From Minisyncoccota bacterium (GTDB lineage: Bacteria > Patescibacteriota > Minisyncoccia > UBA6257 > 2-01-FULL-56-20), in assembly GCA_025449695.1 (NCBI GenBank), contig JANWIW010000030.1, forward strand, positions 1,990 through 65,989: 64,000 nucleotides of DNA. Direction: 5' to 3'. The notes under the pieces were generated by a model, which was not told the origin of the DNA, did not search any database, and saw only the letters and a list, made by a program, of their open reading frames with translations. The position numbers and the translations under genes were made by a program. This document shows, piece by piece, positions 270-53,376 of this stretch; position 1 is the first letter of the stretch; every line of letters starts with the position of its first letter.

Positions 270-385
270 CTGTCATCCTGAGCCCCCCGCGAGCATACGC
301 GGGGCAGGCTCTGCAGCGGGCGAAGGGCCTTGCGCCACCGCTGAAGCTAAGGCGGCACGCGGTCGGGGTACTTCAGGATGACAGA
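270..385. repeat. MITE/REP-like palindromic repeat copy A (termini CTGTCATCCTGAG ... CTTCAGGATGACAG)
   Basis: Inverted termini are visible directly; the interior is GC-rich hairpin-forming sequence. It sits between the two tandem Cys-rich paralog genes. Confidence 0.7.
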
Positions 386-391
386 TAGGCT

Positions 392-2197
392 TCATGCCAC
401 TTCGCTTTGATAGCAGGTTTCGCAGTAGATTATCTCGGGGCGCTCGGAAGCGTACGTCGTCTGGAAGGCACTCGGGCAGGGTCCGGCATCGTGGAAATGG
501 GCGCTGTTGTTCTTATAGCCGCCGCGCTCGGACCCACTGCCGGCGCATTGGCACTGCCGGGACCAAAGGCGCAGGGGGTTCCGCTGGACCAGCCGCTGGT
601 AATGGCGACAGCTGGGGCAGAGCCGCGGCACGGGAATATTCATACTCCGGTAGAACTGGAGTTCCGAGGATATGAGCCGGAAGGCCTTGGTGCATTGCTC
701 CGCGCAGGAGCCCTTGTGCGCGCATTCGATTGTGGCCTGCAAGATAGAATCGTCCGTTTCCGTGATGGTATCCGGTATCTCTTCCTGGAGCATCGTGACG
801 GCATAGTTTTTGCCTGCCGGGTCCTTCCACACATAACCTTTCACCCTGGCCTCGTCTGGGGTCAGGGTGGCGATCTCTTGGGCTATGGTTTCGTTGTACG
901 CGAATGGAGATAGCTCGGATGGGAAGAACTCGCCGTAGGGGTAGGATTTACCCTGCTTATCCATATAAGGCATTGCGTTCATGTGCTCGATGATCTTCGG
1001 GACCAGGGTCTCGTACTCCTCTTTTGAGTACTGCTTGTTCAGGATGCAGTATTGCTTGTTGCGCAGGCCGACGCAGCCGAACAAATAAGAAGACCCGTGT
1101 GAGTTGTAAGAATAATAGATATCATGCGAATCCAGGGTAAAGCGCGAATAGAATACCCTGCTGCCCGGATAGATGGTCGAGGAATCCACGGCCAGCTCCG
1201 TGTTCAACCCCACCCGGTCGCAGTCGTAGAGATCCTTGATATTGGAATACGCGAGCCAGGTGCGGGTGCAGTCCTCTCCCCCGCCGAAGATATCGAAGCA
1301 ATGCCTGCAGTTTTTGGCATTCTCCAGGTTGTCGCCCGTGGAATTCACCGAGTGGATGATGTGAGCGTAGCGGCGCGGATACCGCATCGCATGCTCCTCG
1401 AACCTTTTCTTGATTCCTTCCAGGGCCATGGAGCTGCCGGCGTTCAGCTTGGCGAGTTCCGCTTCGTATTCTTCCTTGGAATACTGGACGTTGAATATTT
1501 GGTAGGCGCCGTTCACCAGATTGGTGCAGCCGAAGCAGTCATGGCAGTTCCGGCAGTTGAAAAGAAAGGCGCTGTTGTAGCAACTTTCGCAGTACCGGCT
1601 CCATGAGAGCCGGGAGCAGGAAATGCAGTCCACCGTCTCGTAGGCATGCTCACTCTTCGATACCCAGTAGTTGTCCAGGCACTCCTTGGAATTGAAGATG
1701 TAGGTGGAGTAGGCAGTGTTCTCGTTAAAGTCGCCACCGAAGACCAGGTAGCAGTTCTTGTTGCCCTCGGTGATACTGCAATAATCGCTGTTCACCGGGT
1801 TGATGTTCAAGAGAGCGACATCCGGGACCTGCGTCCAAAGATCTTTCACCTGCCGGAGGAAAGGCCGCGCGAAATCCATCCCCATGCCATATTCCAAGGG
1901 GTCCCAGCTATCACTCCACCAGGTGGAGTGATCGAACACCCTTTGAGGATTATCCTCGGAAAAGATGGATATCAGCTCTTCACTGTGTCCGGGAGCGCCA
2001 CACTTTCGCTTATAGAGCGTCCGCTCGTTCCTAAAGCTCATCCGCCGCACGATGCGGCAGTCGAAGCACCAGCCCGGCGGCGGAACTTTCACCCGTTCAT
2101 AAAACGCGAAGTCTGCGGGTTCTAAAGTGAACTGGGCACCGCAGTTCGCGCACGCCCGGACTTGCCCTGAACCGGTCGAAGAGATTTCCGGCTGCAT
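392..2197 (-). CDS. Cys-rich multi-zinc-ribbon protein (unknown function; contains internal duplication)
   Basis: ORF 392..2233 (-). The probable start is the internal Met MQPEISSTGSGQVRACANCG at 2197, by alignment with the paralog start MTETGTRTCANCG. The protein has about 45 Cys in CxxC and CxxCxxCxxC clusters (CRNCHDCFGC, CVGLRNKQYC). Internal repeats ...NVQYSKEEYE and ...LNKQYSKEEYE are present. N- and C-terminal ribbons share the motif F(T/R)IxPxExxFYxxxxxPxPxxCPxCR. Confidence 0.7.
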   Translation of the reverse strand: MQPEISSTGSGQVRACANCGAQFTLEPADFAFYERVKVPPPGWCFDCRIVRRMSFRNERTLYKRKCGAPGHSEELISIFSEDNPQRVFDHSTWWSDSWDPLEYGMGMDFARPFLRQVKDLWTQVPDVALLNINPVNSDYCSITEGNKNCYLVFGGDFNENTAYSTYIFNSKECLDNYWVSKSEHAYETVDCISCSRLSWSRYCESCYNSAFLFNCRNCHDCFGCTNLVNGAYQIFNVQYSKEEYEAELAKLNAGSSMALEGIKKRFEEHAMRYPRRYAHIIHSVNSTGDNLENAKNCRHCFDIFGGGEDCTRTWLAYSNIKDLYDCDRVGLNTELAVDSSTIYPGSRVFYSRFTLDSHDIYYSYNSHGSSYLFGCVGLRNKQYCILNKQYSKEEYETLVPKIIEHMNAMPYMDKQGKSYPYGEFFPSELSPFAYNETIAQEIATLTPDEARVKGYVWKDPAGKNYAVTMLQEEIPDTITETDDSILQATIECAHKGSCAEQCTKAFRLISSELQFYRSMNIPVPRLCPSCRHYQRLVQRNPLRLWSRQCQCAGSGSERGGYKNNSAHFHDAGPCPSAFQTTYASERPEIIYCETCYQSEVA

Positions 2198-2240
2198 GAT
2201 TCTCATTAAACCTAAAAGCTTGCCTTGCAGCAAGCTTCCT

Positions 2241-2320
2241 TGTCATTCCGGGAGCCAGGCGGGGCTTGTCCGGAATCCAGTACGTGCATTCCTGGATCCC
2301 GGCTCGGGGCCGGGATGATA
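2241..2320. repeat. MITE/REP-like palindromic repeat copy B (TTGTCATTCCGGGAG ... GGCCGGGATGATA)
   Basis: Same terminal motif family as copy A. It contains the CCTGGATCCCGG core seen in copies D, G and H. Confidence 0.6.
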
Positions 2321-2333
2321 TAACGACTTTGTA

Positions 2334-3803
2334 TTAATATTTTTCCAGCAAATGCACCAGCAGGTTCACGGGAGTGCCGGCCGCGCCCTTGGCCAGGAAC
2401 TCGCTGTCGCTCGGGGTCATGCGCGGGGCGATGTCCAGGTGAACCCAGGGAAAGGGCTTGATGAACTGCCAGAGAAAGACGGCGGCGATGATCGCGCCTG
2501 CCTCGCGGCGGCTCTTGCCCACGTTCGCCCAGTCACCGAAGGTCGCCTTCACCTCGTCCTCGTACTCCTCCCAGAGCGGTAGAGGCCAGACGAAGTCAAA
2601 AGCGCGTTCTCCCGCCTCGCGGAAGAGCTTCTCCAGGTTGAGGTCGGTCGCGAAAAGCGCGGAGGCCTTCTTGCCGAGGGCAACCTCCGCCGCGCCGGTC
2701 AGCGTGGCGATGTCCACCACAAGGCGCGGATCGTACTTCTTGGCATATTCAAGCGCGTCGGCGAGCACTACCCTGCCTTCCGCATCGGTATCCATGATCT
2801 CGATGGTCTTGCCGTTCAACGTCTTTACTACGTCGCCGGGGCGGTAGCTGGAACCGGAAGGCATGTTCTCCGCGGCGGCGATGAGGCCGACGACGTTCTT
2901 CTTTGCCTTCAGCCGGGCAAGGGCGGCCAGAATATGAATGACCGCGGCGCCTCCGGACATGTCGAGGTGCATCTCATAGATGTTCTGGGAAGGCTTGAGG
3001 TTTAGGCCGCCGGAATCGAAGGTGATTCCTTTACCCACAAGGACCACGGGCTTTTCCTTCTTTGAGCCTTTCATGTACTCCATCATGATGAAGCGGGGCG
3101 GGTTGATCGAACCCTTGCCGACGGCGGTGAGACCGCCCATGCCCAGTTCGCGGATCTTTTTTTCGTCCATGACGCTCACCTTGATGCCGCAGCGCTTGCC
3201 GGTCGAGACCGCCGCTTCGGCCAGGGTCTGCGGGGCCATGTCGCCACCCGGCGTATTGGCAAGCTCGCGAGTGCGATTGATCTCCTCGCCGATGACCTGG
3301 CCGCGCGCCAGGGCTTTTTGCACCCGCTTCTCCCCGCCGAAGACCACGATCTTCTCCACCCGGTTCCATCCTTCCTTGGGCGGCGTCTTATAGTGGGTAT
3401 ACTCGAAATTGGCCACCTCCGATTGGAGCGCCAGCGTCTCCGCGAGATATTCCAGGTCCGAAGCGCCTTTCGCCGCGAAGTCCGCCAGATCCACAAGAAG
3501 AATCTTGATTTTTTCTCTTTTGGCCGTGGCCGTGAGCCTGCGTATCGCGAGCACCGCCTTGCGGGCCGTAAACTTCGCTGGGTCGCCGATGCCGAAAAGG
3601 ACCACCTGAATGCCGGAAGGCAGGAACACTATATGCGAGCCCGGCTCCGCGACCGGCGTCTTCTCGAGAAAGCGGTTCAGAAGGAGCTTGTCCTCGTCGG
3701 AAAGATTCTTATAGAAAGGATGGCCGATGATCTTCTTGCCGCCCTTCACGACGATCACGGATACGGCCTGCGGCTCGAATTTCTTGCTCGCGATTATCTG
3801 CAT
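2334..3803 (-). CDS. pepA: leucyl aminopeptidase (M17 family)
   Basis: 489 aa with the M17 signatures GKGITFDSGG and DTDAEGRVVLADAL. Confidence 0.9.
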   Translation of the reverse strand: MQIIASKKFEPQAVSVIVVKGGKKIIGHPFYKNLSDEDKLLLNRFLEKTPVAEPGSHIVFLPSGIQVVLFGIGDPAKFTARKAVLAIRRLTATAKREKIKILLVDLADFAAKGASDLEYLAETLALQSEVANFEYTHYKTPPKEGWNRVEKIVVFGGEKRVQKALARGQVIGEEINRTRELANTPGGDMAPQTLAEAAVSTGKRCGIKVSVMDEKKIRELGMGGLTAVGKGSINPPRFIMMEYMKGSKKEKPVVLVGKGITFDSGGLNLKPSQNIYEMHLDMSGGAAVIHILAALARLKAKKNVVGLIAAAENMPSGSSYRPGDVVKTLNGKTIEIMDTDAEGRVVLADALEYAKKYDPRLVVDIATLTGAAEVALGKKASALFATDLNLEKLFREAGERAFDFVWPLPLWEEYEDEVKATFGDWANVGKSRREAGAIIAAVFLWQFIKPFPWVHLDIAPRMTPSDSEFLAKGAAGTPVNLLVHLLEKY

Positions 3804-3829
3804 GGGAATGGTTGTGGTATCCGGCGGGC

Positions 3830-4360: not shown

Positions 4361-4367
4361 AGCGGAT

Positions 4368-5444: not shown

Positions 5445-5531
5445 TGACGTGCTTCGAAAGCCGATGTTATAACCTACCCAGTAAAAAGCGCATAATCAGA
5501 CGACGGCGCGAACGGGGAATGGAGATGATCT

Positions 5532-6080: not shown

Positions 6081-6138
6081 AAGCGCGCGGCGGCAGTATG
6101 AGCGTGCCCCCGGCACGACGTCCGGGGGCACGCTCTTT

Positions 6139-7527
6139 TTAATCCGCTTCGAGCGACCGGACCGCGTCCGCGAATTGCTTGCCGCGGTCCTTGTAATTTT
6201 GGAACATGCCGAAGCTCGCGCAGGCGGGCGAAAGGATGACCGAGTCCCCTGGTTCGGCCAGGCCGGATGCGGCTTCTATTATCTCCGTCATAGAGGTGGA
6301 ACCTTCGTGCAGCCGGACCTTGTCTAGCGGGATGCCGTGATCGGCCATGGCGGCCTTTATGCGCGGCCATTCTTCGCCAACGCCGACAATGCCCCGTATC
6401 GAGGCGGACCGGCCGATCGCCGCCGCCAGGCCGGTGAAATCGGCGCCCTTGGTGGCGCCGCCGAGGATGAGAACCTTGGGCTCGTCGAACGACTCGATCG
6501 CGGCCATGGCGGTGTCCGGAGTGGTGCCGAAGGAATCATCCCAATACCGTACACCGCGCACCTCCCGGATGAACTGCAATCGATGCTCCAATCCTTTAAA
6601 GGTGCGCAGGGTACCGCGGATGGCGTCGAGGGGCACTTCGAGCAAGAACGCTGTCATGGCGGCCGCGCAGGCATTCTCGATATTGTGGTGTCCTGGCAGG
6701 GCGACTTCCCTGCGCGAAAGGATCTCCCGAATATCGCCGTTCTCCGCGATCACGATATTCTCGCCCTGCAGGAACGAGCCGCGCTGGAGGGGTTTGCGCC
6801 GGCTCACCCAGAACTTGCGCCCTAGGGACGACTCGGCGATATCCCGGGAAGCGGAGTAATCGATATTGGCCACGACCGCATCTGTCGGGGCCTGGTACCT
6901 GACAATATTCCGTTTCGCGTTCACGTACTCCTCCGCGCTGCCATGAAGGTCGAGATGGTCTTGAGTGACCATGAGCACCACGGCGATCCTGGGGCTGCGG
7001 GTCACTTCGAGGAGCTGGAAACTCGATATCTCATACACTACGATGACATTTTTCGTGATGCGATCCAGGATGGAAAGGGCGGGTATGCCGATATTGCCGA
7101 TAAGCTCGGCCTTCTGTCCGGCGGCCTGCAGCATATGATAGATCAGGGATGCAGTCGTTCCTTTGCCCTTGGTTCCCGTGATACCCACGATCGGCGCTGG
7201 GCAAAGCTCGAAGAATATCGCCGTGCTCGAGGTAACGGGGATGTTGCCGGTCCGGGCCGCCACGATGAGCGGATGGCGGATGGGCACTCCGGGCGACCGG
7301 AGTACAAAGTCGAACCCATCCAGGGCTTGTCCTTCGCCAATCCGGATTTCCACTCCCTGGCGTTCCAAGGCCTTTAAGGCCTCGGCATCCTCCTCGGAAA
7401 ACTTATATTCGGGCTTGTCATCGAAGAGGGCCAAGCGAGCCCCTCGTGCCAGGAGAAATTCGGCGGCGGAGCGTCCTTCCATCCCGAACCCTATAATGGC
7501 GATGCGCTTGTTTTTGAATTCGTACAT
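6139..7527 (-). CDS. murD: UDP-N-acetylmuramoyl-L-alanine--D-glutamate ligase
   Basis: 462 aa with N-terminal IAIIGFGMEGRS Rossmann fold and the Mur ligase P-loop GITGTKGKGTTA. Confidence 0.9.
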   Translation of the reverse strand: MYEFKNKRIAIIGFGMEGRSAAEFLLARGARLALFDDKPEYKFSEEDAEALKALERQGVEIRIGEGQALDGFDFVLRSPGVPIRHPLIVAARTGNIPVTSSTAIFFELCPAPIVGITGTKGKGTTASLIYHMLQAAGQKAELIGNIGIPALSILDRITKNVIVVYEISSFQLLEVTRSPRIAVVLMVTQDHLDLHGSAEEYVNAKRNIVRYQAPTDAVVANIDYSASRDIAESSLGRKFWVSRRKPLQRGSFLQGENIVIAENGDIREILSRREVALPGHHNIENACAAAMTAFLLEVPLDAIRGTLRTFKGLEHRLQFIREVRGVRYWDDSFGTTPDTAMAAIESFDEPKVLILGGATKGADFTGLAAAIGRSASIRGIVGVGEEWPRIKAAMADHGIPLDKVRLHEGSTSMTEIIEAASGLAEPGDSVILSPACASFGMFQNYKDRGKQFADAVRSLEAD

Positions 7528-7535
7528 GGCGCAGG

Positions 7536-7958: not shown

Positions 7959-8058
7959 CATGACACATGTGCGCGCGCGAACGCGAGAGCGCGTAGTTCG
8001 CAGTTGATCGTTGGTAGATTTTCGGGCCATTATTGTTGATTTTATCAGCTTTCCGAGC

Positions 8059-12755: not shown

Positions 12756-12846
12756 AGAATAAATGCGCGGACATGCCATTCCCGCGAAGGCGGGAATTGA
12801 TTAGAGCGATGCTGGAGTGGATTCCCGCCTTCGCGGGAATGGCAAG
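12756..12846. repeat. pair of mirror hairpins (ATTCCCGCGAAGGCGGGAAT ... ATTCCCGCCTTCGCGGGAAT)
   Basis: Two 8-bp-stem hairpins with GAAG/CTTC loops in opposite orientation, between the nudix and exonuclease genes. The same TTCCCGC/GCGGGAA module occurs in repeat copy D. Confidence 0.6.
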
Positions 12847-18219: not shown

Positions 18220-18360
18220 CTCCCTTCAGAAAGCCGCTTCTTTCCTCTCTGTCTGCCACTCCGGAAGCCAGCAGGCTATCCGGAATGGCAGGTCCGAGTA
18301 AAGCCCCCGATCTGCAAGGAAAAGAAAGTGTGACTCTTACCTCTTATCCCTCCAGCACCT

Positions 18361-19861: not shown

Positions 19862-19990
19862 TGTCATCTTGAGCGACCGAAGGAAGTCCCTTTAGGGGCG
19901 ACCGCAGGAAGTCCCCGTGGGAGTATTCCGAAGGACCCCGGTGTTACATCGGGGTCCTTCCCCCGCATCAAGTGCGGGGTCAGGATGACA
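19862..19990. repeat. MITE/REP-like palindromic repeat copy C (TGTCATCTTGAGCG ... GGGGTCAGGATGACA)
   Basis: Inverted termini and an internal imperfect direct repeat (GACCGAAGGAAGTCCC / GACCGCAGGAAGTCCCC), between rpmA and rplI. Confidence 0.7.
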
Positions 19991-20470: not shown

Positions 20471-20546
20471 TGTCATTCCCGCCTCCGGGCGGGAATCCAC
20501 TCTTGCGCTGGATCCCGGGTAGCCTGACTGGGCTTCCGGGATGACA
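20471..20546. repeat. MITE/REP-like palindromic repeat copy D (TGTCATTCCCGCC ... CTTCCGGGATGACA)
   Basis: Termini plus the internal hairpin ATTCCCGCCTCCGGGCGGGAAT. Its 3' half is nearly identical to the 3' halves of copies G and H. Confidence 0.7.
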
Positions 20547-23823: not shown

Positions 23824-23962
23824 GCCGGTCATTATACGGAAATCGGCGGGCCTCCTCAAGGAGGCTGAGGAATGATACCCTTTTGTCATCCTGCTGTGCC
23901 CTCCGTAGCTTTAGCGAAGGAGGGAGTCTGCAGGAGCGGGCAAAGGAGCTTGTCCGCTCACT

Positions 23963-24033: not shown

Positions 24034-24184
24034 CATTAGCTGTTGGCTTAGCGAGTACCCGAGCTTAGCAACCCTTATGCCCCGCCGAAGCTCGTCGGAG
24101 CGAAGGAGGGCCACCTTGAGCATAGTTCTGGGCGTCCGAGGAGGGTTGAAAGGTCCGATGTAATATATAATTAAGTTACTAGCT

Positions 24185-24562
24185 ATGGGAACATTTATCG
24201 AAACGAACGACACTCTGCAAATTACAAAAGAGCAAGGGTTCCCTGCCGAACTCGATTTGGATACTCACCTTAAAAATCCTTTCACGGTAAAAGATTTTGA
24301 AGGGAAAATCTTCGCTTTCAAAGACAAGCCCAATATAAGAGTTTATCAGCAACCGCCGGTCAGAAACTTTTTAGTAGAAAATAGAAATGACAAGTGGATA
24401 TATTGGGGCTTGATTCACATGTTGGAAGTTAACCATGACTATGGGGAAAAGGTGACTAGCGGCAAGTTTCGCATAATTTATATAAATACCCCAGAGGAAA
24501 TGAAAGTGGCGCATAGAATCACCGATCGACGTCCTGAAGCAGATTTCTTTGGGCATGACTAA
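24185..24562 (+). CDS. hypothetical protein (island)
   Basis: 125 aa in low-GC (about 40%) sequence immediately downstream of the tRNA. Confidence 0.55.
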   Translation: MGTFIETNDTLQITKEQGFPAELDLDTHLKNPFTVKDFEGKIFAFKDKPNIRVYQQPPVRNFLVENRNDKWIYWGLIHMLEVNHDYGEKVTSGKFRIIYINTPEEMKVAHRITDRRPEADFFGHD

Positions 24563-24580
24563 AGAGAAAAATGATCTGTT

Positions 24581-25255
24581 ATGCCAACAAACTTTTACGA
24601 TAGCGATGACTTTAAAAATATCGACTTCAAACCCTTAAATCCGTTGTATTATCCGACGGAGTACCAGCGCTACATCAAAGAAGAGACCGACCTCATTAAG
24701 CAACACATCAACGGCAAAACAGCACTTGAGGCTGGGGTCGGTATCGGCAGATTGATTCCCGATCTTGCCCCTATCGCAAAAGAGTTCGTCGGCATAGACA
24801 ACGCCGATCTCATGCTCCAGAATTCTAAAGAGCGAGCGGAAGGCTTCTCAAACGTCCGCCTTGTGAAAGGCGATCTTGAGAATCTTTCACACTTATTCCC
24901 GTCTAAATATTTCGATGTCAGCCTCTGTGTCTGGAATACTCTCGGCAACGTGAAAGATGAAGTCGTTGTGCTATCCGAACTCGCCAAAGTTACCAAGGAA
25001 AGAATTCTGGTTTCGGTACATCTAAAAGGCGCCTTAGAACAGAGGAAGAATTGGTATAAAACAGTTGGCCTTTCCATGGATGGAGTGGATGAGAAAAACG
25101 AGATTTTCTACAACACTAAGTCGGGACTCCGGTCGAAGGCGTATAGCCTTGAGGAGATCGAAGCTATTTCTAAAAACGCAGGGCTGGTCGTTGCAGATCA
25201 CAAGATCTTGGCTGGCGTTGTTCTTTGGGTTGAAATTGAAAGCTTGCCCAAGTGA
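24581..25255 (+). CDS. class I SAM-dependent methyltransferase
   Basis: Motif I LEAGVGIGRL and motif post-I/II; 224 aa. Confidence 0.75.
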   Translation: MPTNFYDSDDFKNIDFKPLNPLYYPTEYQRYIKEETDLIKQHINGKTALEAGVGIGRLIPDLAPIAKEFVGIDNADLMLQNSKERAEGFSNVRLVKGDLENLSHLFPSKYFDVSLCVWNTLGNVKDEVVVLSELAKVTKERILVSVHLKGALEQRKNWYKTVGLSMDGVDEKNEIFYNTKSGLRSKAYSLEEIEAISKNAGLVVADHKILAGVVLWVEIESLPK

Positions 25256-25328
25256 AACATGAGAACGAGCTATACTTATCCTATGAAGAAAAGAGTAAAA
25301 ACCCTCCGGCGACTCACTAAAATGACCC

Positions 25329-25399
25329 GTCCGAGGAGCCTCTTTCTGGTAAGATGAACTAACCCTCTGGGAGCCTTGCGGGGTAAGGGTTTTCAGAAG
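25329..25399 (+). promoter_or_regulatory. conserved 5' leader element, copy 1 (upstream of the SDR gene)
   Basis: GTCCGAGGAGCCTCTTTCTGGTAAG...CTCTGGGAGCCTTGCGGGGTAAGGGTTTTCAGAAG. A 70-nt paralogous element lies upstream of the AKR gene at 26949..27019 and shows covariation in a small hairpin (CTCTGGGAG vs CTTCGGGAG). Confidence 0.4.
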
Positions 25400-25448
25400 T
25401 ACGAGACCGGGAAGGCCAGCAGCAGCGAGATGGAGTAGAATCATATAT

Positions 25449-26135
25449 ATGAACTTGGAAAACAAGGTTGTTGTTATAACGGGAGGCAGCGAGGGTTTCG
25501 GTAAATCTCTCGCGAGAATGTTTTCCCACGAAAAATCCCGCCTAATAATTGCGGGCCATGAGCAGGCTAAGCTGGAGGATGCAGCAAAAGAGTTGGGAGC
25601 AGATTATCTACTGATTGACGTTACCCGTCCACAAGAGCTCAATAATTTGGCGGCATACGTTTCTGAAAAATATGGAACGATAGATATTTGGATAAACAAT
25701 GCCGGGATTCAGATTGCGCCCAGCATGGTGGAAAACGTAGATATTGAAAAACTACACCACTTATTCGAGGTTAATTTTTTCGGCTATTTTTACGGCTGTC
25801 AAAGCGCAATTCGGTGCATGAAAAAGCAGTCTCACGGATTAATAGTCAACGTGAACTCCACCGCAGGACTTGATGGCAAATCTGGACTTTCCGCTTATTC
25901 TTCTTCGAAATTCGCAACTAAGGGATTGACCGAATCTCTGCGGAAAGAGGTCGTCGATACACACATTCAAGTCTTTGCTGTATATCCCGGAGGAATGCAG
26001 ACGAACATCTACAAAGAAAAGTATCCGGACGACCTGAAAAACTATATGCTAACGGATGATGTTGCGAAAAAGGTGGTAGATAATCTCAAGATAGATCATC
26101 CCGAAAAGGACCTTATCCTTAAGCGGTCGGCGTGA
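25449..26135 (+). CDS. SDR-family oxidoreductase
   Basis: TGGSEGFGKSLA Rossmann motif and the YxxxK catalytic site (YSSSKFATKGL). Confidence 0.85.
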   Translation: MNLENKVVVITGGSEGFGKSLARMFSHEKSRLIIAGHEQAKLEDAAKELGADYLLIDVTRPQELNNLAAYVSEKYGTIDIWINNAGIQIAPSMVENVDIEKLHHLFEVNFFGYFYGCQSAIRCMKKQSHGLIVNVNSTAGLDGKSGLSAYSSSKFATKGLTESLRKEVVDTHIQVFAVYPGGMQTNIYKEKYPDDLKNYMLTDDVAKKVVDNLKIDHPEKDLILKRSA

Positions 26136-26165
26136 ATAAGGTTGGGCTAGATCCAAGAATCGTTC

Positions 26166-26300
26166 CGGTCACGTCCCACCTGCCCAGTCGATTACAGAAT
26201 CTAACCCGCTTTGCGGGTAGGATTCTGTTGAGTCCTGCGCTGCGCCCTTCGAAGCTTTACGATACCCCGCGAAGCTCGAAGAGCAAAGTGGGGCTACCTT
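26166..26300. repeat. island intergenic repeat, family X, copy 1 (contains the TCCCACCTGCCCAG motif and a strong hairpin at 26194..26228)
   Basis: About 85% identical over about 100 nt to 27920..28030. The hairpin is ACAGAATCTAACCCGC-TTTG-GCGGGTAGGATTCTGT. It sits between convergent genes, so it likely acts as a terminator. Confidence 0.6.
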
Positions 26301-26340
26301 GTGCATAGTATCGAGTGACCGAGACGCGTCAGTTCTCCCC

Positions 26341-26832
26341 TCAGCCCCGCCGCGCCGCCTCAATAGCAGCAACGTCGATTTTTGTCATTGTCATCATCGC
26401 TTCAAAGGCACGCTTTGCTTCTGCGCCGCCAACCGCAAGTGCGTCGATCAGCGTACGCGGCGTGATCTGCCATGATACTCCCCAGCGGTCTTTGCACCAG
26501 CCACATTGGCTTTCCTGACCTCCATTCCCGACGATCGCGTTCCAATAGCGATCTGTTTCTTCCTGATTGTCCGTCGCGATCTGAAAGGAAAATGCCTCAC
26601 TTTGTTTGAACGCTGGTCCACCGTTCAGACCAATACAAGGGATTCCAAAGACCGTGAACTCTACCGTGAGCACGTCGCCTTCCTTGCCATCCGGAAAATC
26701 ACTGGGCGCATGATTAACAGCCGTTACTTTACTATCGGGAAAAGTAGCGGCGTAAAAGTTTGCTGCGTTTTCTGCATCCTTGTCGAACCAGAGGCAAATT
26801 GTATTTTTTGGTTGCATGTTATTTTGTATCAT
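26341..26832 (-). CDS. VOC-family protein (PhnB/YjdN-like glyoxalase fold)
   Basis: N-terminal ICLWFDKDAENAANFYAATFPDSKV is typical of PhnB-like VOC proteins. Confidence 0.75.
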   Translation of the reverse strand: MIQNNMQPKNTICLWFDKDAENAANFYAATFPDSKVTAVNHAPSDFPDGKEGDVLTVEFTVFGIPCIGLNGGPAFKQSEAFSFQIATDNQEETDRYWNAIVGNGGQESQCGWCKDRWGVSWQITPRTLIDALAVGGAEAKRAFEAMMTMTKIDVAAIEAARRG

Positions 26833-26948
26833 TATTTTACCGCGCTTCGGGAGATTTGCAAACTAAGTAAAAGTATCTCATTGATCCCCGGCCGGGACGG
26901 GTCAACTCTCCCCTGCCGGTAGCGAGAGTATACCGCCATTTAGCATCC

Positions 26949-27019
26949 GTCCGAGGAACCTAGTTCTGGTAAACTTACAGAATCCTTCGGGAGACTTACG
27001 GGGTAATGATTTTACAAAA
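26949..27019 (+). promoter_or_regulatory. conserved 5' leader element, copy 2 (upstream of the aldo/keto reductase gene)
   Basis: GTCCGAGGAACCTAGTTCTGGTAAAC...CTTCGGGAGACTTACGGGGTAATGATTTTACAAAA. See copy 1. Confidence 0.4.
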
Positions 27020-27049
27020 TCCGCGATCGAGAAAGCCACCACTATAACC

Positions 27050-27913
27050 ATGAACCAGAAGATTCTAAAAAGCGGATTCTATCTTCCTGAAATTGGCTTA
27101 GGAACCGGAGGTGATCCCTCAAAAGCTGTCGGTTATGAAGAGCGGAAAAAAGCGCTTCAGATCGCACTTGATATGGGATACCGGCATATTGATTGCGCAG
27201 CGACATACTCCAATGGAGGGGTAGAAAAGTTCGTTGGGGAGGCCATTAAGCGCATTGATCGTTCGGAATTAATCCTTTCAACAAAAGTTTCTCCGCTCAA
27301 TCTTGCTTATGATGACCTAATTGAATCAGTGCAATTAAGCTTGGGTCGTTTAGGAGCAAGTTACGTCGATTTGTTGTACATCCATGCTCCTAATATGGAT
27401 ATTCCCTTATCCGAAACCATGCGAGCTATGGATACCGTGATAGATAATGGGATGGCAAAGCACCTGGCCGTGAGTAATTTCAACGTCGACCTTCTCATCA
27501 AAGCACAGTCGTTTACCAAGAATAAAATTGTCGCGAATCAGATCGAGTATAATCTTGCGACTCGTGAAAAAAGTCATTGCGAGGGGTGTGACAGTATGGA
27601 ATCGAAAATAATTCCATTCTGCCAGGAAAATGACATTCTCGTGGTCGCGTATCGACCCGTTGATCGAGGCTCTATCCTTGAACCCAACCAATTACTCGAT
27701 ACCTTGTCAAAAAAGTATGGGAAAACGAGAGCACAAATCGCCTTGAATTGGCTGATTTCACAAGACAACATCGTTACCATTCCACGCTCGGATGCATTCG
27801 CCCATCTTAGGGAAAACCTTGACGCAAGTGGTTGGTATTTAGACAAAGCAGACGTCGAACTCCTTAGAAGGGAGTATCCGCTTAGAGAGATTAAGTCCTA
27901 CCGTTATTATTAA
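27050..27913 (+). CDS. aldo/keto reductase
   Basis: 287 aa with the AKR signatures (DCAATYSNGG..., LYIHAPN) in a TIM-barrel. Confidence 0.85.
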   Translation: MNQKILKSGFYLPEIGLGTGGDPSKAVGYEERKKALQIALDMGYRHIDCAATYSNGGVEKFVGEAIKRIDRSELILSTKVSPLNLAYDDLIESVQLSLGRLGASYVDLLYIHAPNMDIPLSETMRAMDTVIDNGMAKHLAVSNFNVDLLIKAQSFTKNKIVANQIEYNLATREKSHCEGCDSMESKIIPFCQENDILVVAYRPVDRGSILEPNQLLDTLSKKYGKTRAQIALNWLISQDNIVTIPRSDAFAHLRENLDASGWYLDKADVELLRREYPLREIKSYRYY

Positions 27914-27919
27914 GCTCAC

Positions 27920-28060
27920 GAATCGCGTCCCACCTGCTCAGCCGATTACAGAATCTTACCCGCACAGCGGATTAGATTCTGTTGAGTCCTGCGCTGCGCC
28001 CTTCGAAGCTTTACGGCGTCCAGCGTAGCTTGAGCGGAATTGAAGCGAAGAAGGGAAGCC
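27920..28060. repeat. island intergenic repeat, family X, copy 2
   Basis: GCGTCCCACCTGCTCAGCCGATTACAGAATCTTACCCGC...GATTCTGTTGAGTCCTGCGCTGCGCCCTTCGAAGCTTTACG, nearly identical to copy 1. Confidence 0.6.
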
Positions 28061-28086
28061 TTGGCGAAGTGGGTCAGCAAAGAGAA

Positions 28087-28674
28087 TTAGCTGATCCCAA
28101 CGAGATAATATCTCCTTGTTCCCTCATTGGTCACCTGAACAGTAAATCCCTGTTCTGAAAATAGTCTCGATAAATTATCTGGGGAATAAAATACACTTCC
28201 CATTTTTAGGAACTTTTCCATGCGGACTATCACCCTCCCTCCAAAAGTTAAAGGGTTAAATTCCTCTACAATTACTGCACCTCCATACTTCAGAACCCTC
28301 TTGATTTCCTGAGCACATTGAACTTGATTCGGCAAATGATGGAACACATCTACCATAATAATTTTATCTATTGAGTTGTCGGCAAAAGGTAACTTTTCGG
28401 CAGTTCCGATCAGGCAGGCAATTCCATTGTGCTTGCGGCATTGCTCGATCATTTTCTCTGATGGATCGACCACCGTAACTTTCTTTACCTTCCCTGTTAA
28501 AAACTTGGCTACTCTGCCCGTACCGCCTCCTACATCAACAACTTCATCTTCAACGCTAAACTCTACGACAGAAGTAAGTTTCCTAAAAGTAGCTTTTGCT
28601 CCGATATGAACCTTCTCATATATCGGCGCAAGAACGTCAAAATAGTTGGGCACACCCCTAATGATATACTTCAA
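28087..28674 (-). CDS. class I SAM-dependent methyltransferase
   Basis: Motif I VVDVGGGTGRVAKFL and Methyltransf_11-like DVFHHL. Confidence 0.75.
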   Translation of the reverse strand: MKYIIRGVPNYFDVLAPIYEKVHIGAKATFRKLTSVVEFSVEDEVVDVGGGTGRVAKFLTGKVKKVTVVDPSEKMIEQCRKHNGIACLIGTAEKLPFADNSIDKIIMVDVFHHLPNQVQCAQEIKRVLKYGGAVIVEEFNPLTFGGRVIVRMEKFLKMGSVFYSPDNLSRLFSEQGFTVQVTNEGTRRYYLVGIS

Positions 28675-28843
28675 CGATCACGGTTCCAATCGCATCCCAC
28701 CTGCCCGGCATTAGTGAAAGTAAGTCGGGTTTCCGTTCTTTTGCGGGCTCCGCAAGCAAGGATTTGAATAATAATCCTCCCCTTACGAACAGGAAGGACC
28801 TCGACCGAAGTCGAGGCCCCACATGCTTTGCCGCTGTGGATTG

Positions 28844-29929
28844 TCATGCTGCGATGAGCGCGGACGGGTTCGGGGCGGGAAGCTCCTTGCCCGTGATGAT
28901 CGCGATCTCTCCCAGCACCCTCTGGAGGTAGCCGGTTGGCAGAACGGTTTGCGCGGCGGAACCGTCCACGAGAGAGAGGCTTGTCGCGAGCAACAAGTCG
29001 CCTTGGCGCACGCCATTCAGCTTGAACGAACGTCGGCCGCCGACACTCGGGTTCTGCAGGTCAACCACGACTTCATTGAGAGCCGGCGTCGGCCGCGGCG
29101 CGTCGGCCGTGAATCGGTAGCTCGCGATAGCTCTCTCCACGTGGGTGTAGGGCTCGCGGTAACCGTACTGGTCGTGGCCGAACCACTTCTCGACTGCGTC
29201 CGCCACGAACCGCCGGACCTGCCCCTGGTTCGAGATGACGACGCGCAGCATCTCTCCGGTCTCTTTGCTTCGGAACCAGATGAGACCGCCGACCTGGGTG
29301 AAGTCCGAGGCCGAGAAGCTTCGCCTTCCATACTCGTCGTAGTCAGTACGGGTGCTGTAGACGAAATCTTTTTCGACGGGGACCCAGCCGCCGTCCGCCA
29401 CAGGTTCCGCGACGCCTTGCTCGATAGAGAAGGGGTCCTCAACAGAAAAGACGCCATTTATGAGCCGCTCCATCCAGTCCCAGTCCTGGGAGTTGTCCGC
29501 GAGGCACTTGTTGCGGCGAGCGATGAAGCTGGCAACGCCGAGCGGCGTGAAAGAGAAGATCGCCCAGAACAGGCAAAGTTCAATGGCGAAAAAGACGCGC
29601 TCCGGAGCAGGGACCCACGCCCCGCCCTCACGTTCGCCATAGCCGCGATCGCCGTAAACATAACTGCCGTTGTGAGCGAGGAAGTGAGCTTCATCGATAC
29701 CCACGAGATCGCCCCGGACACCGCGATTGGGATCGGCCAAATTGGCACGAGCTGTTTCCGCCGTGGGGTACGAAATCGGATACAGCCTCTCGTACAACAC
29801 GTCGTCGAGGCGGTAGTGAAGGATGCTCGCGCCGAGAATGCAGAGGAAAACGAGCAGGGCGAGCAGGGCGCCGTTTTGGAACATCTCACTGGCAGCCTTG
29901 GGGGAAAGAGGGATTTTGGCTTGTTTCAT
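28844..29929 (-). CDS. hypothetical membrane-anchored protein
   Basis: 361 aa with an N-terminal TM (ALLALLVFLCILGASIL) and a large extracytoplasmic domain. The antisense ORF 28823..30004 is rejected as R/D-rich GC noise. Confidence 0.6.
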   Translation of the reverse strand: MKQAKIPLSPKAASEMFQNGALLALLVFLCILGASILHYRLDDVLYERLYPISYPTAETARANLADPNRGVRGDLVGIDEAHFLAHNGSYVYGDRGYGEREGGAWVPAPERVFFAIELCLFWAIFSFTPLGVASFIARRNKCLADNSQDWDWMERLINGVFSVEDPFSIEQGVAEPVADGGWVPVEKDFVYSTRTDYDEYGRRSFSASDFTQVGGLIWFRSKETGEMLRVVISNQGQVRRFVADAVEKWFGHDQYGYREPYTHVERAIASYRFTADAPRPTPALNEVVVDLQNPSVGGRRSFKLNGVRQGDLLLATSLSLVDGSAAQTVLPTGYLQRVLGEIAIITGKELPAPNPSALIAA

Positions 29930-30205
29930 CAGTCACTCCTTTCGATTTTTGCAGCTCAGAAACCACTGGTTGAGGGAAATGGATTGTCGGAGATCTCGTG
30001 CTAATTTAACAAGTTTCCATAAAATTGTCAATGGCACGGACATTAAAATCCCCGGCGGCGCAGAGATGTTGGCTTTAGAAAGTCAATCAAGTTTGCAAAT
30101 TATTGAATCGAGGATCCTGATCGGAGTTATAGGACTGAATTTCAGAAAGCATCTCCAATAGCATCCCACCTGCCCAGCAAGTGGTTTCCGTGCCATAATT
30201 GAGTA

Positions 30206-30766
30206 ATGAAAAAATTAGCGCCTGCAATAATAACAGTAATCGTAATTGCTGCAGGAGTTTACTACCTCAACTCAACTCCTCACCAGGAATCTGCATCGCA
30301 AGCTCCGCCGGCAAACCAGAGATCTTTCGACGGAAGGAATGCTACCTTCTCGATAAATGACAATGCGATCACGCTTGTCGATGGAGCAGCGGAAAGCCCT
30401 GCCGCTCCCGGTTCCGCGTCGAAAGTCGTCACCCGTTATTTCGGCAATGAGGCGACCGGAGATCTGAATGGCGACGGCTCGCAGGATGTGGCGTTTCTCG
30501 TGACTCAGGACGGCGGAGGCAGCGGGCTCTTCTATTATGCCGTAGTCGCCCTTAAGACAGCGGATGGATACAGAACCACGAACGCCTTCTTCATCGGCGA
30601 CAGGATCTCCCCGCAGTCAACTTACATCCCGATGAATTCCATGGAGCTCCACGTGAACTATGCGGAACGCAAGCCGGGCGAGCCGATGACCGCGCAGCCT
30701 TCTGTCGGAGCGGTCAAGCTGCTTAAGGTCACCTCTCATGGAGTGTTGGAAGGCCTCATGAAATAA
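30206..30766 (+). CDS. hypothetical secreted/signal-anchored protein
   Basis: 186 aa with an N-terminal signal anchor and a DLNGDGSQD motif. Confidence 0.6.
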   Translation: MKKLAPAIITVIVIAAGVYYLNSTPHQESASQAPPANQRSFDGRNATFSINDNAITLVDGAAESPAAPGSASKVVTRYFGNEATGDLNGDGSQDVAFLVTQDGGGSGLFYYAVVALKTADGYRTTNAFFIGDRISPQSTYIPMNSMELHVNYAERKPGEPMTAQPSVGAVKLLKVTSHGVLEGLMK

Positions 30767-40572: not shown

Positions 40573-40737
40573 TCTTCCCGTTTGTCATCCCGGCTCCCTC
40601 CTTCGCTCCTTCTGCGCTTAGCCTTCGAAGGACACGCAAAAGCTCCAACTTCGCCATAGGCCTACGGCTGGACACGTCCTCCTTCGCTATAGGCTACGGC
40701 TGGACACGTACGGAAGGGCATCGCAAGGCCGGGATAA
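40573..40737. repeat. MITE/REP-like repeat copy F with an internal 33-bp tandem duplication
   Basis: Starts TTGTCATCCCGGC and ends GCCGGGATAACA (degenerate). Inside is CTTCGCCATAGGCCTACGGCTGGACACGTC repeated twice. Confidence 0.55.
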
Positions 40738-40833
40738 CAAAATAAACGGGGCTACAGCGCTAGAAAGACGGGTGGACCGCTGATCTCCGGCTGGCAAGTG
40801 CGCGGGAGGAGAGATTGGCTACACCGCAGCGGT

Positions 40834-43234: not shown

Positions 43235-43262
43235 CTCAATTGTCCGCACAAGGAGAGCCCTG

Positions 43263-43616: not shown

Positions 43617-43787
43617 TGACGGATATTAAGCCGCACAGGAAGACCGCCTTCCCGTGCGGCTTCCTCGTTGGCCTGGAAAAGGCTTCTAAGAGAGATGAGG
43701 AGCTGGATATAAAAGCAGAATGACCAGGCCGAAGCCTGGTCATTCCTGATCCCGCCCGAAGGCGGTTTCTGCTTACTGCGTGAACCA

Positions 43788-45802: not shown

Positions 45803-45887
45803 ATCCCTAATGATGCACCACCGGCGTGAACGGAGCGTTAAGCCGGTTTGCCGGCTTTCCCCAAAAAAGGTGCTATAATCCCAGTAT

Positions 45888-46160: not shown

Positions 46161-46182
46161 GCGCGGCGACAGGGGCCAACGA

Positions 46183-47433: not shown

Positions 47434-47512
47434 TGCCCATCCATTCTTCCATGCCCGCCTTTAAATTAAGTGAAAGCCGGGACGGCCTTTGTTATTATTA
47501 GCATATATGGAC

Positions 47513-48562: not shown

Positions 48563-48566
48563 GGGA

Positions 48567-49286: not shown

Positions 49287-49377
49287 GTCCCTTTATTCTA
49301 CCAGATGGCGGCAGGATGCGCAGATGAACTTTCCATGAGGCCGGCATCCTTGTCTTCCTCTTTTTGACGGGACTATA

Positions 49378-51141: not shown

Positions 51142-51172
51142 TTGCGGCCGGGAACGGTTCCCAGTATCATAG

Positions 51173-52219
51173 ATGACTATGTATTCCGACCTTAAAGTCG
51201 CGGGCCCGAAGCGTGGCGAGATAGAGATAACCGGCCAGATACCTCCGGCTGACCTGGAAGGCTACTATACTCAGGTCCTGGAGGAAATGCGCAAGGATTT
51301 CTCGATGCCGGGGTTCCGCAAAGGCAATGTGCCGATGGAAACCTTCCAGCCCCACGCGAACCAGGGCCATGCCCTGGAGGAGGCGGCAGAGCTTGCCCTC
51401 GCGGACGCATATCCCGCGATCATAGAAGAGCGCGCCCTGGAGACGCTCGGACGGCCGGAAGTAACGATCACCAAGCTCGCCCTCGGCAATCCGATGGAAT
51501 TCAAGATAGTCGTCGGCGCAAGGCCGGTGATAAAGCTGCCGAACTATAAGAAGATCGCCGGCGAAGTCCGCGCTGCCCGGAAGCCCATGGAGGTGACCGA
51601 TGCCGACGTGGAAGAGGTCGTCACTTCGCTCCGCAAGCTGCGTGCGGCGCCTTCCGTGTCCCAAGATGCCAAGAAGGATGGTGCCCCCACGCCGGAAGAG
51701 CTGCCGGAGCTGACCGACGAATTCGTGCGTACCTTGGGAAGCTTCGAGACTATATTGGATTTCAAGGTCAAGCTGCGCGAGAACCTGAAGCTCGAGAAGG
51801 AAACCGAATCGAAGCGCGTCCTCAGAGAAGCGATTGCCGCCAAGCTCGCGGAGAGCGTAAAGATGGAGCTGCCGGAACGCTTCGTGGAAGGAGAAGCGGA
51901 GGCCATGTTCGAGCAGCTGCGGCACGATCTTGAGCACGCGAACCTCTCCCTGGAGGATTATCTGAAGCGTTCCAATACCACGGAAGAAACCGTCCGCAAG
52001 AGCCAGCGGGAATACGCCGAGCGGCAGATCAGGACGCGCCTGATCCTGGAGGAGGTCGCCAAGGCGGAATCCATCGAGCCGAACGCCGATGAGGTGCGGA
52101 TGGAGTCGGAACTCCTGCGCGAACGGAACCCGGAACTGGAACCGGAGCGCATCGCGCGATACGTCACGAACCTCCTGCGGAACGAGAAAGTGCTGGAATT
52201 TTTGGAAAAAGCAGAATAG
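51173..52219 (+). CDS. tig: trigger factor lacking the PPIase (FKBP) domain
   Basis: The N-terminal ribosome-binding domain carries the signature PGFRKGNVP. EVTDADVEEVVTSLRKLRA matches the linker, and the C-terminal arm domain is present. At 348 aa it has no room for an FKBP domain. Confidence 0.75.
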   Translation: MTMYSDLKVAGPKRGEIEITGQIPPADLEGYYTQVLEEMRKDFSMPGFRKGNVPMETFQPHANQGHALEEAAELALADAYPAIIEERALETLGRPEVTITKLALGNPMEFKIVVGARPVIKLPNYKKIAGEVRAARKPMEVTDADVEEVVTSLRKLRAAPSVSQDAKKDGAPTPEELPELTDEFVRTLGSFETILDFKVKLRENLKLEKETESKRVLREAIAAKLAESVKMELPERFVEGEAEAMFEQLRHDLEHANLSLEDYLKRSNTTEETVRKSQREYAERQIRTRLILEEVAKAESIEPNADEVRMESELLRERNPELEPERIARYVTNLLRNEKVLEFLEKAE

Positions 52220-52232
52220 GGAGATCGTGCCT

Positions 52233-52416
52233 GTCATCCCGGCCTTGCCGCCTTTTGGCACGGCTTCGCCAAGGGCGAGGCTTCCGTGAGAGGCGAGGCT
52301 CGCTTGAAGCAGCGCCTCCGGCGGGATACGAGACCCAAGCTTGTCATTCCGGCCTTGAGCCGGGATCCAGTATTTTCCTGGATCCCGGATAGCCCCGCTG
52401 GGCTTCCGGGATGACA
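52233..52416. repeat. MITE/REP-like repeat copy G (tandem composite of two elements)
   Basis: CTGTCATCCCGGCC...CAAGCT then TGTCATTCCGGCC...GGGCTTCCGGGATGACA. It is about 95% identical over 184 bp to copy H, which lies about 960 bp downstream. Confidence 0.85.
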
Positions 52417-52553
52417 AGGCCATTTCCAATCACGATTCAGTCATTAAGTATCTCATGGAAATTTCCTTGAAAGCGAGGAACGGGAATCCAGAGGCTCTCA
52501 AATCAAACTGCCCGACGCGAAGGCCGGGCAGCTGACTAATGCGTGGTTCGAAG

Positions 52554-53027
52554 TTACGACGGCCACGAGACGTCGGCGGCGGCGAGATAGTGGTCCAGAT
52601 CCTTCTGCGGGACCAGGCTCATCACGCCCTCGCGAAGGACATGAAGCTCTTCCCACACGGCCTGCACATTTCTGGGACCGAAATTCATCCGCTTCAACTT
52701 GGTCGAATACACTACGGTCCGGTTGCCATCCGTGCCATAGAATTGGCACTCTATCTCAATCCTCGATGCGGAATCGCTCCGAAACACGATCCACACGCAC
52801 TTCCGTCCCTCAAATTCGAAGCGATACCCTCCCGAGAGGCGGCTGTTCTGGACGAGATTGCCCTCACACGCGGTGACGTTGATGGCTTGAGACAGCTCGT
52901 CATGCAACAGATCGAACATCAGGGTCACCATGATGTTCACCTCGTTTCTCATCCTGTCGATCGCATATGCACCCCTGACGAGCTTGAGTGTGATCTCTCT
53001 ACTGTTGTTTCCGATCGCGACTTTCAT
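52554..53027 (-). CDS. hypothetical protein flanked by repeat copies G and H
   Basis: ORF 52554..53108; the likely start is MKVAIGNNSREITLKL. No family cue. Confidence 0.5.
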   Translation of the reverse strand: MKVAIGNNSREITLKLVRGAYAIDRMRNEVNIMVTLMFDLLHDELSQAINVTACEGNLVQNSRLSGGYRFEFEGRKCVWIVFRSDSASRIEIECQFYGTDGNRTVVYSTKLKRMNFGPRNVQAVWEELHVLREGVMSLVPQKDLDHYLAAADVSWPS

Positions 53028-53192
53028 TTCTGCCTCCAGAATGCCCCCTCGGGCTTTTAAGTCGTGATTGCTTTTTCTACCAAGCACACGCTTGGCTTCT
53101 CTTTGCATTATACAAATTTAGACTATATTTGTCAAACTTTAGCCTACCCTCCCGGCTTTGGCGCGCTACTTGCGTTGTAATCTGAAAGCATT

Positions 53193-53376
53193 GTCATCCC
53201 GGCCTTACCGCCTTTTGGCACGGCTTCGCCAAGGGCGAGGCTTCCGTGAGAGGCAAGGCTCTCTAGAAGCAGCGCCTCCGGCGGGATACGAGACCCAAGC
53301 TTGTCATTCAGGACTTGAGCCGGGATCCAGTATTTTCCTGGATCCCGGATAGCCCCGCTGGGCTTCCGGGATGACA
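53193..53376. repeat. MITE/REP-like repeat copy H
   Basis: Near-identical direct repeat of copy G. Confidence 0.85.

Follow-up and report, generated by a model that had tools for sequence, protein, structure and literature searches.

The window analyzed here is a 64-kb stretch (64,000 nt) of contig JANWIW010000030.1 from a Minisyncoccota bacterium, and all window counts given below refer to it. Its intergenic regions carry a family of short palindromic repeats with TGTC-tagged ends, which are the subject of this study. Pfam scans of about 70 open reading frames (ORFs) yielded housekeeping genes, e.g., for the M17 and S41 peptidases, SecA, MurB, MurD, and the ribosomal proteins L27 and L9, and in addition fmt, def, the trigger factor gene, and two-component systems. 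A transposase, an integrase, a RAYT, or a GIY-YIG protein was not found in these scans. The claim of a first-pass annotation that the window contains no transposase was therefore confirmed, as tblastn searches of the window with E. coli RayT and with GIY-YIG proteins were also empty.

The abundance of the repeats was quantified with their terminal motif. TGTCATYC occurred 17 times, compared to 3.6 ± 2.1 expected occurrences (maximum 11) in dinucleotide-preserving shuffles. All 12 exact matches to TGTCATYCYG were intergenic, and the regions between the ORF calls make up about 14.6% of the window. The presence of a palindromic repeat family in intergenic DNA, which the first-pass annotation had proposed, was thereby borne out. 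The density is about 11 elements per 64 kb, i.e., about one per 6 kb, and seven of them (A, B, X, C, D, F, and G) start 1–35 nt past a stop codon. The tag TGTC was found at 12 termini, TGCC in copy X and in the singleton unit, and a decayed version in the right unit of B. When folded as single-stranded DNA (ssDNA), the elements performed better than shuffled sequences, with z-scores from -2.9 to -9.1. The elements and their coordinates are compiled in Table 1. Seven of the eight copies listed earlier were recovered within a few bases, including copy E, which had been placed at 40573–40737. The eighth, at 43718–43775, had been taken for a degenerate copy and was rejected, since it consists of two terminator-like hairpins between convergent genes, with a T-run after each. 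Copy X, the singleton, and the half-copy at 23884 had been overlooked.

Table 1. Repeat elements of the window and the RAYT locus used for comparison.
Feature	Coordinates (strand)	Structure	Genomic position	z-score of ssDNA fold
Copy A	271–383	long element, termini TGTCATCCTGA...TCAGGATGACA, degenerate structured interior	8 nt downstream of the stop codon of ORF 392–2233 (-)	-3.4
Copy B	2241–2320	head-to-head dimer	13 nt past the stop codon of the M17 peptidase gene	
B-left unit		TGTC, ATTCCGG..CCGGAAT, CCA tail		
B-right unit		stem ATCCCGGC, loop CCCGA, GCCGGGAT, CCA; tag decayed to TATC		
Copy X	12774–12844	head-to-head dimer of TGCC, ATTCCCGC, GAAG, GCGGGAAT units	14 nt downstream of the stop codon of an RNase T-like gene	-9.1
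Singleton	18254–18290	one extended unit, TGCC..GGCA ends		-6.1
Copy C	19862–19990	long element	between the convergent L27 and L9 genes	-6.5
Copy D	20471–20546	canonical head-to-head dimer, 76 nt	12 nt past the S41 peptidase stop codon, 29 nt upstream of the L9 start	-5.0
D-left unit		TGTC, stem ATTCCCGCC, loop TCCG, GGCGGGAAT, CCA		
D-right unit		extended hairpin		
Partial copy	23884–23935 (+)	left terminus TGTCATCCTG followed by a hairpin, no right terminus; extent uncertain	just upstream of tRNA-Gln	
Copy E	40583–40739	long element, TGTCATCCCGGC...GCCGGGATAACA; internal tandem duplication, decayed right tag	orientation of flanking genes uncertain	
Copy F	52232–52433 (+)	composite of module 1, dimer F2, and a 17-nt tail	12 nt past the trigger factor stop codon	
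Module 1 of F	52232–52341	110 nt, decayed right end		
Dimer F2	52342–52416	canonical dimer, 75 nt		-6.9
F2-left unit		TGTC, stem ATTCCGGC, loop CTTGA, GCCGGGAT, CCA		
Copy G	53192–53393 (+)	direct repeat of F (96% identity), same composite layout		
N. gonorrhoeae RAYT locus (L262)	NZ_CP119142.1 (filed as plasmid, 2.17 Mb), 1250–2050	GTAG hairpins on both sides		

Inspection of the elements revealed that, instead of the whole element of 75–185 nt, a unit of about 28 nt with a defined direction is repeated. The unit consists of a TGTC tag, a stem of 8–9 bp that starts with AT, a loop of 4–5 nt, and a CCA tail (Table 1). The right units of D, F2, and G2 (the dimer of G) and the singleton, which is similar to D-right and F2-right, are versions of this unit with a longer, bulged hairpin, and larger structured loops are present in D-right, F2-right, and B-left. 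The CCA tail was found in both units of B, D, F2, and G2 and in the right unit of X, whereas the left unit of X has TGA. The sequence GTC before the palindrome and a C directly after it are both present in 9 of the 11 window units. In B, X, D, F2, and G2, two units are joined head-to-head, so that the tags point outward and the tails are separated by 7–25 nt. The two arms of the inverted repeat of copy X, each 24 nt long, are 100% complementary. The three long copies A, C, and E have TGTCATCC termini in common, and their larger, hairpin-rich interiors are mutually unrelated. Copy C occupies the entire gap between the L27 and L9 genes and is 1 nt away from either stop codon; its left 27 nt match units of the TGTCATCCTGAGCG type at loci on viral contigs. 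The internal modules ATTCCCGC/GCGGGAAT and CTGGATCCCGG, which the first-pass annotation had regarded as shared, are indeed present in B, D, F, and G. Copy D folds into three hairpins that are closed by TGTC/GACA, and this cloverleaf-like appearance is a consequence of the dimer layout. The interpretation of copy D as a tRNA was rejected, as ARAGORN called no tRNA-like elements.

The conservation of the unit was analyzed with 195 canonical units from 853 kb of genome loci in other organisms. The first nucleotide of the tag was T in 161 and C in 22 of them, the stem had a length of 8 bp in 157 cases and of 9 bp in 26 cases, 106 loops comprised 5 nt and 59 comprised 4 nt, and the CCA tail was present in 166 units. 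For the analysis of covariation, 82 distinct units were used that were anchored solely by the tag plus AT and by AT plus CCA. The inner six stem positions were paired to 93.5%, compared to 67% (maximum 72%) with shuffled partners. Among the 82 units, 27 different fully paired stems were observed, and G-T pairs were tolerated in the stems. Thus, the hairpin is retained by compensatory changes and the unpaired tag and tail are fixed, which is the signature of a structure that is read by a protein.

A literature text search with the raw element sequence retrieved unrelated primers only. The unit plan fits the superfamily of CGTC-tagged repetitive extragenic palindromic sequences (REPs), which comprises the families CGTC-1 to CGTC-4 and includes dRS3 of Neisseria and RPE-4 and RPE-6 of Rickettsia (Di Nocera, De Gregorio & Rocco 2013, PMC3733652). 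These REPs have a CGTC tag (with the variants TGTC and CCTC), an 8–9-bp stem starting with AT, a loop of 4–5 nt, and a CCA tail; variants with larger loops are also known, head-to-head dimers predominate, and the repeats are located near the 3′-ends of unidirectional or convergent ORFs (PMC3733652). The repeats of the window share with them the tag, stem, loop, and tail, the organization in dimers, the intergenic position behind stop codons, and the lack of a transposase nearby. In contrast to the described families, the tag in the window is nearly always TGTC, two elements having TGCC instead; long structured "loops" are found in several units, composites of 110–185 nt occur, and the host belongs to the Parcubacteria/Patescibacteria, a group that was not part of the 2013 survey of 5 phyla, in which alpha-proteobacteria prevailed (PMC3733652). 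Therefore, the earlier description of the repeats as REP-like and non-autonomous was correct and can be refined to the CGTC/TGTC-tagged REP superfamily. They represent a known element type in a new host, a bacterium of the candidate phyla radiation (CPR), and not a new element type. Novel aspects are the lineage of the host, the density of the repeats in a genome of small size, and the relationship between miniature and gene-bearing elements, which is made explicit below.

For one member of the superfamily, a cognate protein is known. The core of dRS3 has been redefined as a 28-nt sequence called NTS, CGTCATTCCCGCGMAVGCGGGAATCYRG, which is the target of SsnA, a single-domain GIY-YIG protein (cd10448) of 94 amino acids (Chenal et al. 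2025, PMC11893778). SsnA binds NTS in single-stranded form only, and its cleavage site lies a few nucleotides before the NTS. Cleavage requires the GTC in front of the palindrome and binding requires the C behind it, and the RNA form is not bound (PMC11893778). Ssn-related motifs (SRM) flank 71% of the ssn homologues, on both sides in 42%, and Ssn is encoded in 81% of the genomes that have more than 200 SRM (PMC11893778). Of the 28 positions of the Neisseria NTS consensus, 25 are matched by the right unit of copy X. In addition, the units of the window resemble NTS and SRM in being directional intergenic hairpins with GTC before and C after the palindrome, and in that the same units bracket GIY-YIG genes elsewhere. 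The published narrow SRM search string, HGTCWYN(0-2)YYVSBRHN(0-5)WNVSBRGN(0-2)RNCYNB (PMC11893778), had 4 matches in the window compared to 0.64 expected ones, three of them in F2/G2 and one in coding DNA. Most window units miss the literal string, e.g., due to 9-bp stems or a different base at an R position; D-left, F2-left, and X fail at one or two positions. A further difference to the known systems is the lack of an ssn gene in the window, so that an Ssn partner is only predicted here.

A connection between the units and small GIY-YIG genes was observed in other genomes. At loci that had been chosen by DNA pattern only, small ORFs with a GIY-YIG domain (PF01541, E = 1e-12 to 1e-16) were found between units. 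At locus L075, an ssn gene is separated by 18 nt from the dimer before it and by 14 nt from the dimer after it; at L135, the GIY-YIG gene is located inside a dimer (TGTCATCCCGGCCTTGTGCCGGGATCCAG - gene - CTGGATCCCGGGACAGGCCCGGGATGACA), and at L066 and L083 dimers are adjacent to a GIY-YIG gene. The reverse approach started from the protein and comprised 15 loci on viral contigs (L263–L277) that encode relatives of these GIY-YIG proteins. Units were present within about 60 nt in 12 of the 15 loci, and on both sides with outward tags in 7 of them. The upstream unit at L274 has a hairpin and CCA tail that are exactly those of window copy X, with the tag TGTC instead of TGCC. F2 and the L135 element agree in their ends and in their inner junctions, GGGATCCAG...CTGGATCCCGG, and F2 has TATTTTC where L135 has the gene. 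Therefore, the dimers of the window resemble unit-ssn-unit elements in miniature that have no gene. The first-pass annotation had suggested a search for a cognate insertion sequence with the same inverted repeats; such an element exists elsewhere, in the form of an ssn gene of about 95 codons for a GIY-YIG protein bracketed by units, but not in the window.

The distribution of the family was analyzed with two scans. A scan of viral contigs with the two termini as the only query returned 92 contigs, and all elements on these contigs follow one plan, which is also that of the window. Two viral contigs contain, at their ends, at least five tandem head-to-head dimers with a period of 80–90 nt (L039, 8545–8970; L062, 8923–9430), and these arrays superficially resemble CRISPR or tRNA arrays. 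No CRISPR array was found in the window. The matches listed for a scan of species-representative genomes with the pattern GGATCCCGGN{5,30}CCGGGATGACA include alpha-, beta-, and gamma-proteobacteria, Rickettsia, Coxiellaceae, Chloroflexota, and Omnitrophota, and, from the CPR, Saccharibacteria, Daviesbacteria, Azambacteria, Falkowbacteria, and Parcubacteria. Units of 25–29 nt have hardly changed between Rickettsia, Polaromonas, and CPR genomes: the X unit is identical at 24 of 24 positions to units of a Rickettsia endosymbiont (locus L119), and F2-left is identical at 28 of 29 positions to a Polaromonas unit. Two window-specific sub-sequences had no match in the viral contigs, and the 202-nt composite F had none in 72,556 plasmids. 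The locus L134 of Candidatus Azambacteria (36% GC) contains at 6092–6232 an element with TGTCAT...GGATGACAGAG ends, the right arm of which, CCTTGCGCCACCACTGAAACTAAGGCGGCAC, matches the right arm of copy A, in the interior of the element, at 30 of 32 positions. This sequence match suggests a composite sub-family that may be common to CPR bacteria.

The window itself was placed by its SecA protein, for which the named relatives (63–66% identity) are from metagenome-assembled genomes of Parcubacteria, Liptonbacteria, Paceibacterota, and the "Patescibacteria group". The two closest SecA contigs (L260 and L261, 76–77% identity, 22 kb each) are devoid of units; therefore, the family is not shared at the lineage depth of these two contigs. 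Relatives of the S41 peptidase in metagenomes had at most 52% identity, came from groundwater according to the contig names, and had units at background level.

In the flanking regions of the elements, direct target-site duplications were looked for, as the first-pass annotation had recommended. None were detected among the 16 element flanks examined. Instead, the flanks tend to continue the inverted symmetry of the elements: the 10–12 nt outside of the tags are inverted copies of one another and read roughly GGARAT..YCT|TGTC (e.g., 19851–19861/19991–20002 and 52220–52231/52417–52433), and the right-side flank of X, F, and G reads AAGGCYA. These inverted flanks could reflect a preference for a palindromic target or could be an outer part of the element that spans the expected cut position of Ssn.

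Copies F and G share 96% identity along a block of 202 nt, in agreement with the first-pass annotation, which had noted about 95% identity and had considered recent activity or recombination. The similarity begins exactly at TGTC and ends 17 nt beyond GATGACA. Because it extends past the end of the element, the duplication or recombination of a 202-nt block is more likely than two independent insertions. For example, the pair could have arisen by a Campbell-type insertion of the intervening orphan gene at a resident copy. This gene (52554–53027, -) is bracketed by F and G and has a lower GC content than its neighbors. It is preceded by a perfect TTGACA-17-TATAAT promoter (53135–53107, -), and GGAGG precedes Met28. 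The orphan protein had no homologue but itself among 5.8 billion proteins. The 184-amino-acid ORF between F and G was considered as a partner protein of the repeats and was rejected, as it matched neither Pfam nor NCBIfam and lacked homologues; a single-sequence AlphaFold prediction had a pLDDT of 46 and was unusable. Next to G, the region 53412–54629 (-) encodes a protein of 112 amino acids with a weak match to DUF4258 (E = 0.012) and a PD-(D/E)XK/Cas4-like nuclease of 291 amino acids. With their variable modules, F, G, and C are reminiscent of the hairpin-repeat mosaics of the Neisserial intergenic mosaic elements (NIMEs) and of the E. coli BIMEs. In contrast, NIME arrays are larger and are located beside genes for surface proteins, whereas the window elements are mostly isolated, with one element per gap.

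Taken together, it is likely that the repeats belong to the CGTC/TGTC-tagged REP superfamily and that their units are recognition sites of a predicted Ssn protein. Several observations weigh against this interpretation. First, copies A, C, and E as well as module 1 of F and G have retained the termini, but their units are poorly canonical. Second, the X and singleton units have the tag TGCC and not HGTC, and only 3 of the about 11 units match the SRM string. Third, no ssn gene was detected in the 64 kb by tblastn with five small GIY-YIG proteins, by a scan for the GIY-YIG motif, or by Pfam. Fourth, the contigs L260 and L261 are only partly syntenic, and the synteny is too eroded for a strict comparison with empty sites. 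Last, the activity of Ssn that has been demonstrated is the cutting of ssDNA, and not transposition (PMC11893778).

We hypothesize that each unit folds when the DNA becomes single-stranded during replication, uptake, or repair, and that the folded unit would then serve as the recognition site of Ssn, the small single-domain GIY-YIG nuclease. Based on the activity described for Neisseria, Ssn would bind the hairpin and nick the ssDNA a few bases 5′ of the tag. The genome is predicted to encode its own Ssn outside of the window. With respect to the spread of the repeats, we infer that the gene-less dimers are non-autonomous derivatives of the unit-ssn-unit element and would have spread in trans, and the hairpins may secondarily protect or delimit transcripts. 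A stronger version of this proposal would be that the dimers are true non-autonomous transposons of an Ssn-driven element, in which a gene of about 300 nt has been replaced by a spacer of 7–25 nt. The matching ends and inner junctions of dimers and unit-ssn-unit elements, e.g., F2 and L135, argue in this direction, yet we consider it doubtful.

Three other explanations have to be weighed against the proposed recognition of the units by Ssn. The dimers might be REPINs that are mobilized by a single gene for a RAYT (REP-associated tyrosine transposase, HUH/Y1) elsewhere in the genome and are copied through ssDNA intermediates, like the GTAG-tagged REPs of E. coli and Pseudomonas. The dimers do have the architecture of REPINs, i.e., two inverted palindromic units with a spacer and no target-site duplication. 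In common with the GTAG-tagged REPs of the REPIN-RAYT systems (Bertels & Rainey; Nunvar; Ton-Hoang), inverted unit pairs form one long hairpin, are non-autonomous, and presumably act through ssDNA with a single-copy partner gene that is flanked by repeats. Moreover, Bertels and Rainey described the Neisseria sequence ATTCCCGCGCAGGCGGGAATC as a REPIN that is tied to a Group 2 RAYT and decays where the RAYT gene is frameshifted. However, the tag of REPINs is GTAG (or GTGG) and that of the window units is TGTC or TGCC, and the partner is an HUH/Y1 transposase instead of a GIY-YIG nuclease. In the 2013 survey, a RAYT gene flanked by CGTC repeats was found in no species (PMC3733652). In N. gonorrhoeae, the RAYT gene is directly flanked by the GTAG hairpins GTAGGTCGGATTC..GAATCCGAC (Table 1), and the nearest dRS3 dimer is located 140 nt further upstream, in line with the negative result of 2013. 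Tblastn with E. coli RayT yielded, in addition to the negative result for the window, 2–3 weak matches in 2.2 Mb of repeat-bearing loci, none of which is flanked by units. The RAYT genes of the viral loci L020 and L044 were rejected as partners for the same reason. It is thus improbable that a RAYT is responsible for the window repeats.

The second explanation is that the hairpins, whatever their origin, are 3′-end RNA structures selected by the host, which, once transcribed, block exonucleases or terminate or insulate transcription where genes are densely packed. The position of seven copies shortly behind stop codons, the exact filling of the gap between two convergent genes by copy C, and the tolerance of G-T pairs in the stems would be in agreement with it, and an RNA role has been proposed for the CGTC-tagged REPs, which have the same placement (PMC3733652). 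In contrast to the true terminator-like hairpins at 43717–43765, which have T-runs, no T-run follows the hairpins of the repeats. Rfam searches of the window at the gathering threshold and of the repeat regions at an E-value threshold yielded tRNA-Gln and one chance-level P9 match only, and SsnA does not bind the RNA form (PMC11893778). The invariance of the unpaired tag and tail across phyla points to recognition by a protein, which argues against RNA. We therefore see little chance that RNA structure is the primary explanation, but such a role could exist alongside the recognition by Ssn instead of replacing it.

The first-pass annotation had called the repeats MITE/REP-like. The last alternative, classical miniature inverted-repeat transposable elements (MITEs) that derive from a DDE insertion sequence by internal deletion, have inverted repeats starting with TGTCATCC, and move by cut-and-paste with target-site duplication, is highly improbable: the TG...CA termini typical of many DDE elements and the small, scattered copies would fit, but the flanks are mutually inverted and lack direct duplications, A, C, and E differ in having unrelated interiors, whereas each terminus is a self-contained hairpin, a transposase was not found in the window and the F composite not in plasmids, nearly unchanged units in Rickettsia, Polaromonas, and CPR would be unexpected for the ends of one insertion sequence, and the sole gene type seen between such ends elsewhere encodes a GIY-YIG nuclease.

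Several other features of the window were recorded. Three ORFs, 1–256 (-), 392–2233 (-), and 61253–63325 (-), encode paralogues of a large Cys-rich protein with many CxxC motifs and zinc-ribbon-like segments at both the N- and the C-terminus; they match no Pfam or NCBIfam family. The ORF at 392–2233 (613 amino acids), which is located between copies A and B, was rejected as a partner of the repeats because its two paralogues are unflanked and it has no nuclease signature. Directly 3′ of tRNA-Gln, the region 24040–30210 has a low GC content of 45–54%, compared to about 58% elsewhere. It contains genes for two methyltransferases, an SDR, a 3-dmu-9_3-mt/glyoxalase-like protein, and an aldo-keto reductase. 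Recurring non-coding modules frame these small enzyme genes. A 5′-leader of about 95 nt is shared (25327–25421 versus 26947–27041, 73% identical), and a 3′-module with the near-invariant consensus motif ATCGCRTCCCACCTGCCCAGC occurs at 26164, 27918, 28685, and 30154, with hairpins at 26194–26228 and 27948–27982 following the first two motifs. The region looks like a cassette-type island; an integrase or an Rfam match was not found in it. Finally, imperfect 15-nt tandem repeats at 57386–57584 encode a Q/N/Y-rich stretch (YQYNNQYQYNQYPYQQY...) of a probable secreted protein (ORF 57077–57823, -).

On the practical side, the family explains the unusually structured intergenic DNA beside ribosomal protein and chaperone genes, and recognition of the units avoids spurious calls of small ORFs, e.g., at 53144–53377. 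The results connect two literatures that do not cite each other, i.e., the "CGTC REPs without a dedicated transposase" of 2013 and Ssn with its motifs of 2025. They add a host and not a mechanism, and they reveal a high density of repeats in a lineage of small genomes that are usually thought to be repeat-poor. The gene-less dimers with the ends and junctions of ssn elements also offer a concrete, testable model of how such repeats multiply. If the dimers were indeed Ssn-driven transposons, Ssn would represent a novel type of ssDNA transposase in bacteria, and this reduced Patescibacteria genome would carry a recent burst of repeats that is absent from its nearest relatives. In Neisseria, Ssn lowers transformation by DNA with an NTS-gene-NTS layout (PMC11893778). 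It is also conceivable that, in a CPR cell that scavenges DNA and is naturally competent, the system gates which incoming ssDNA recombines.

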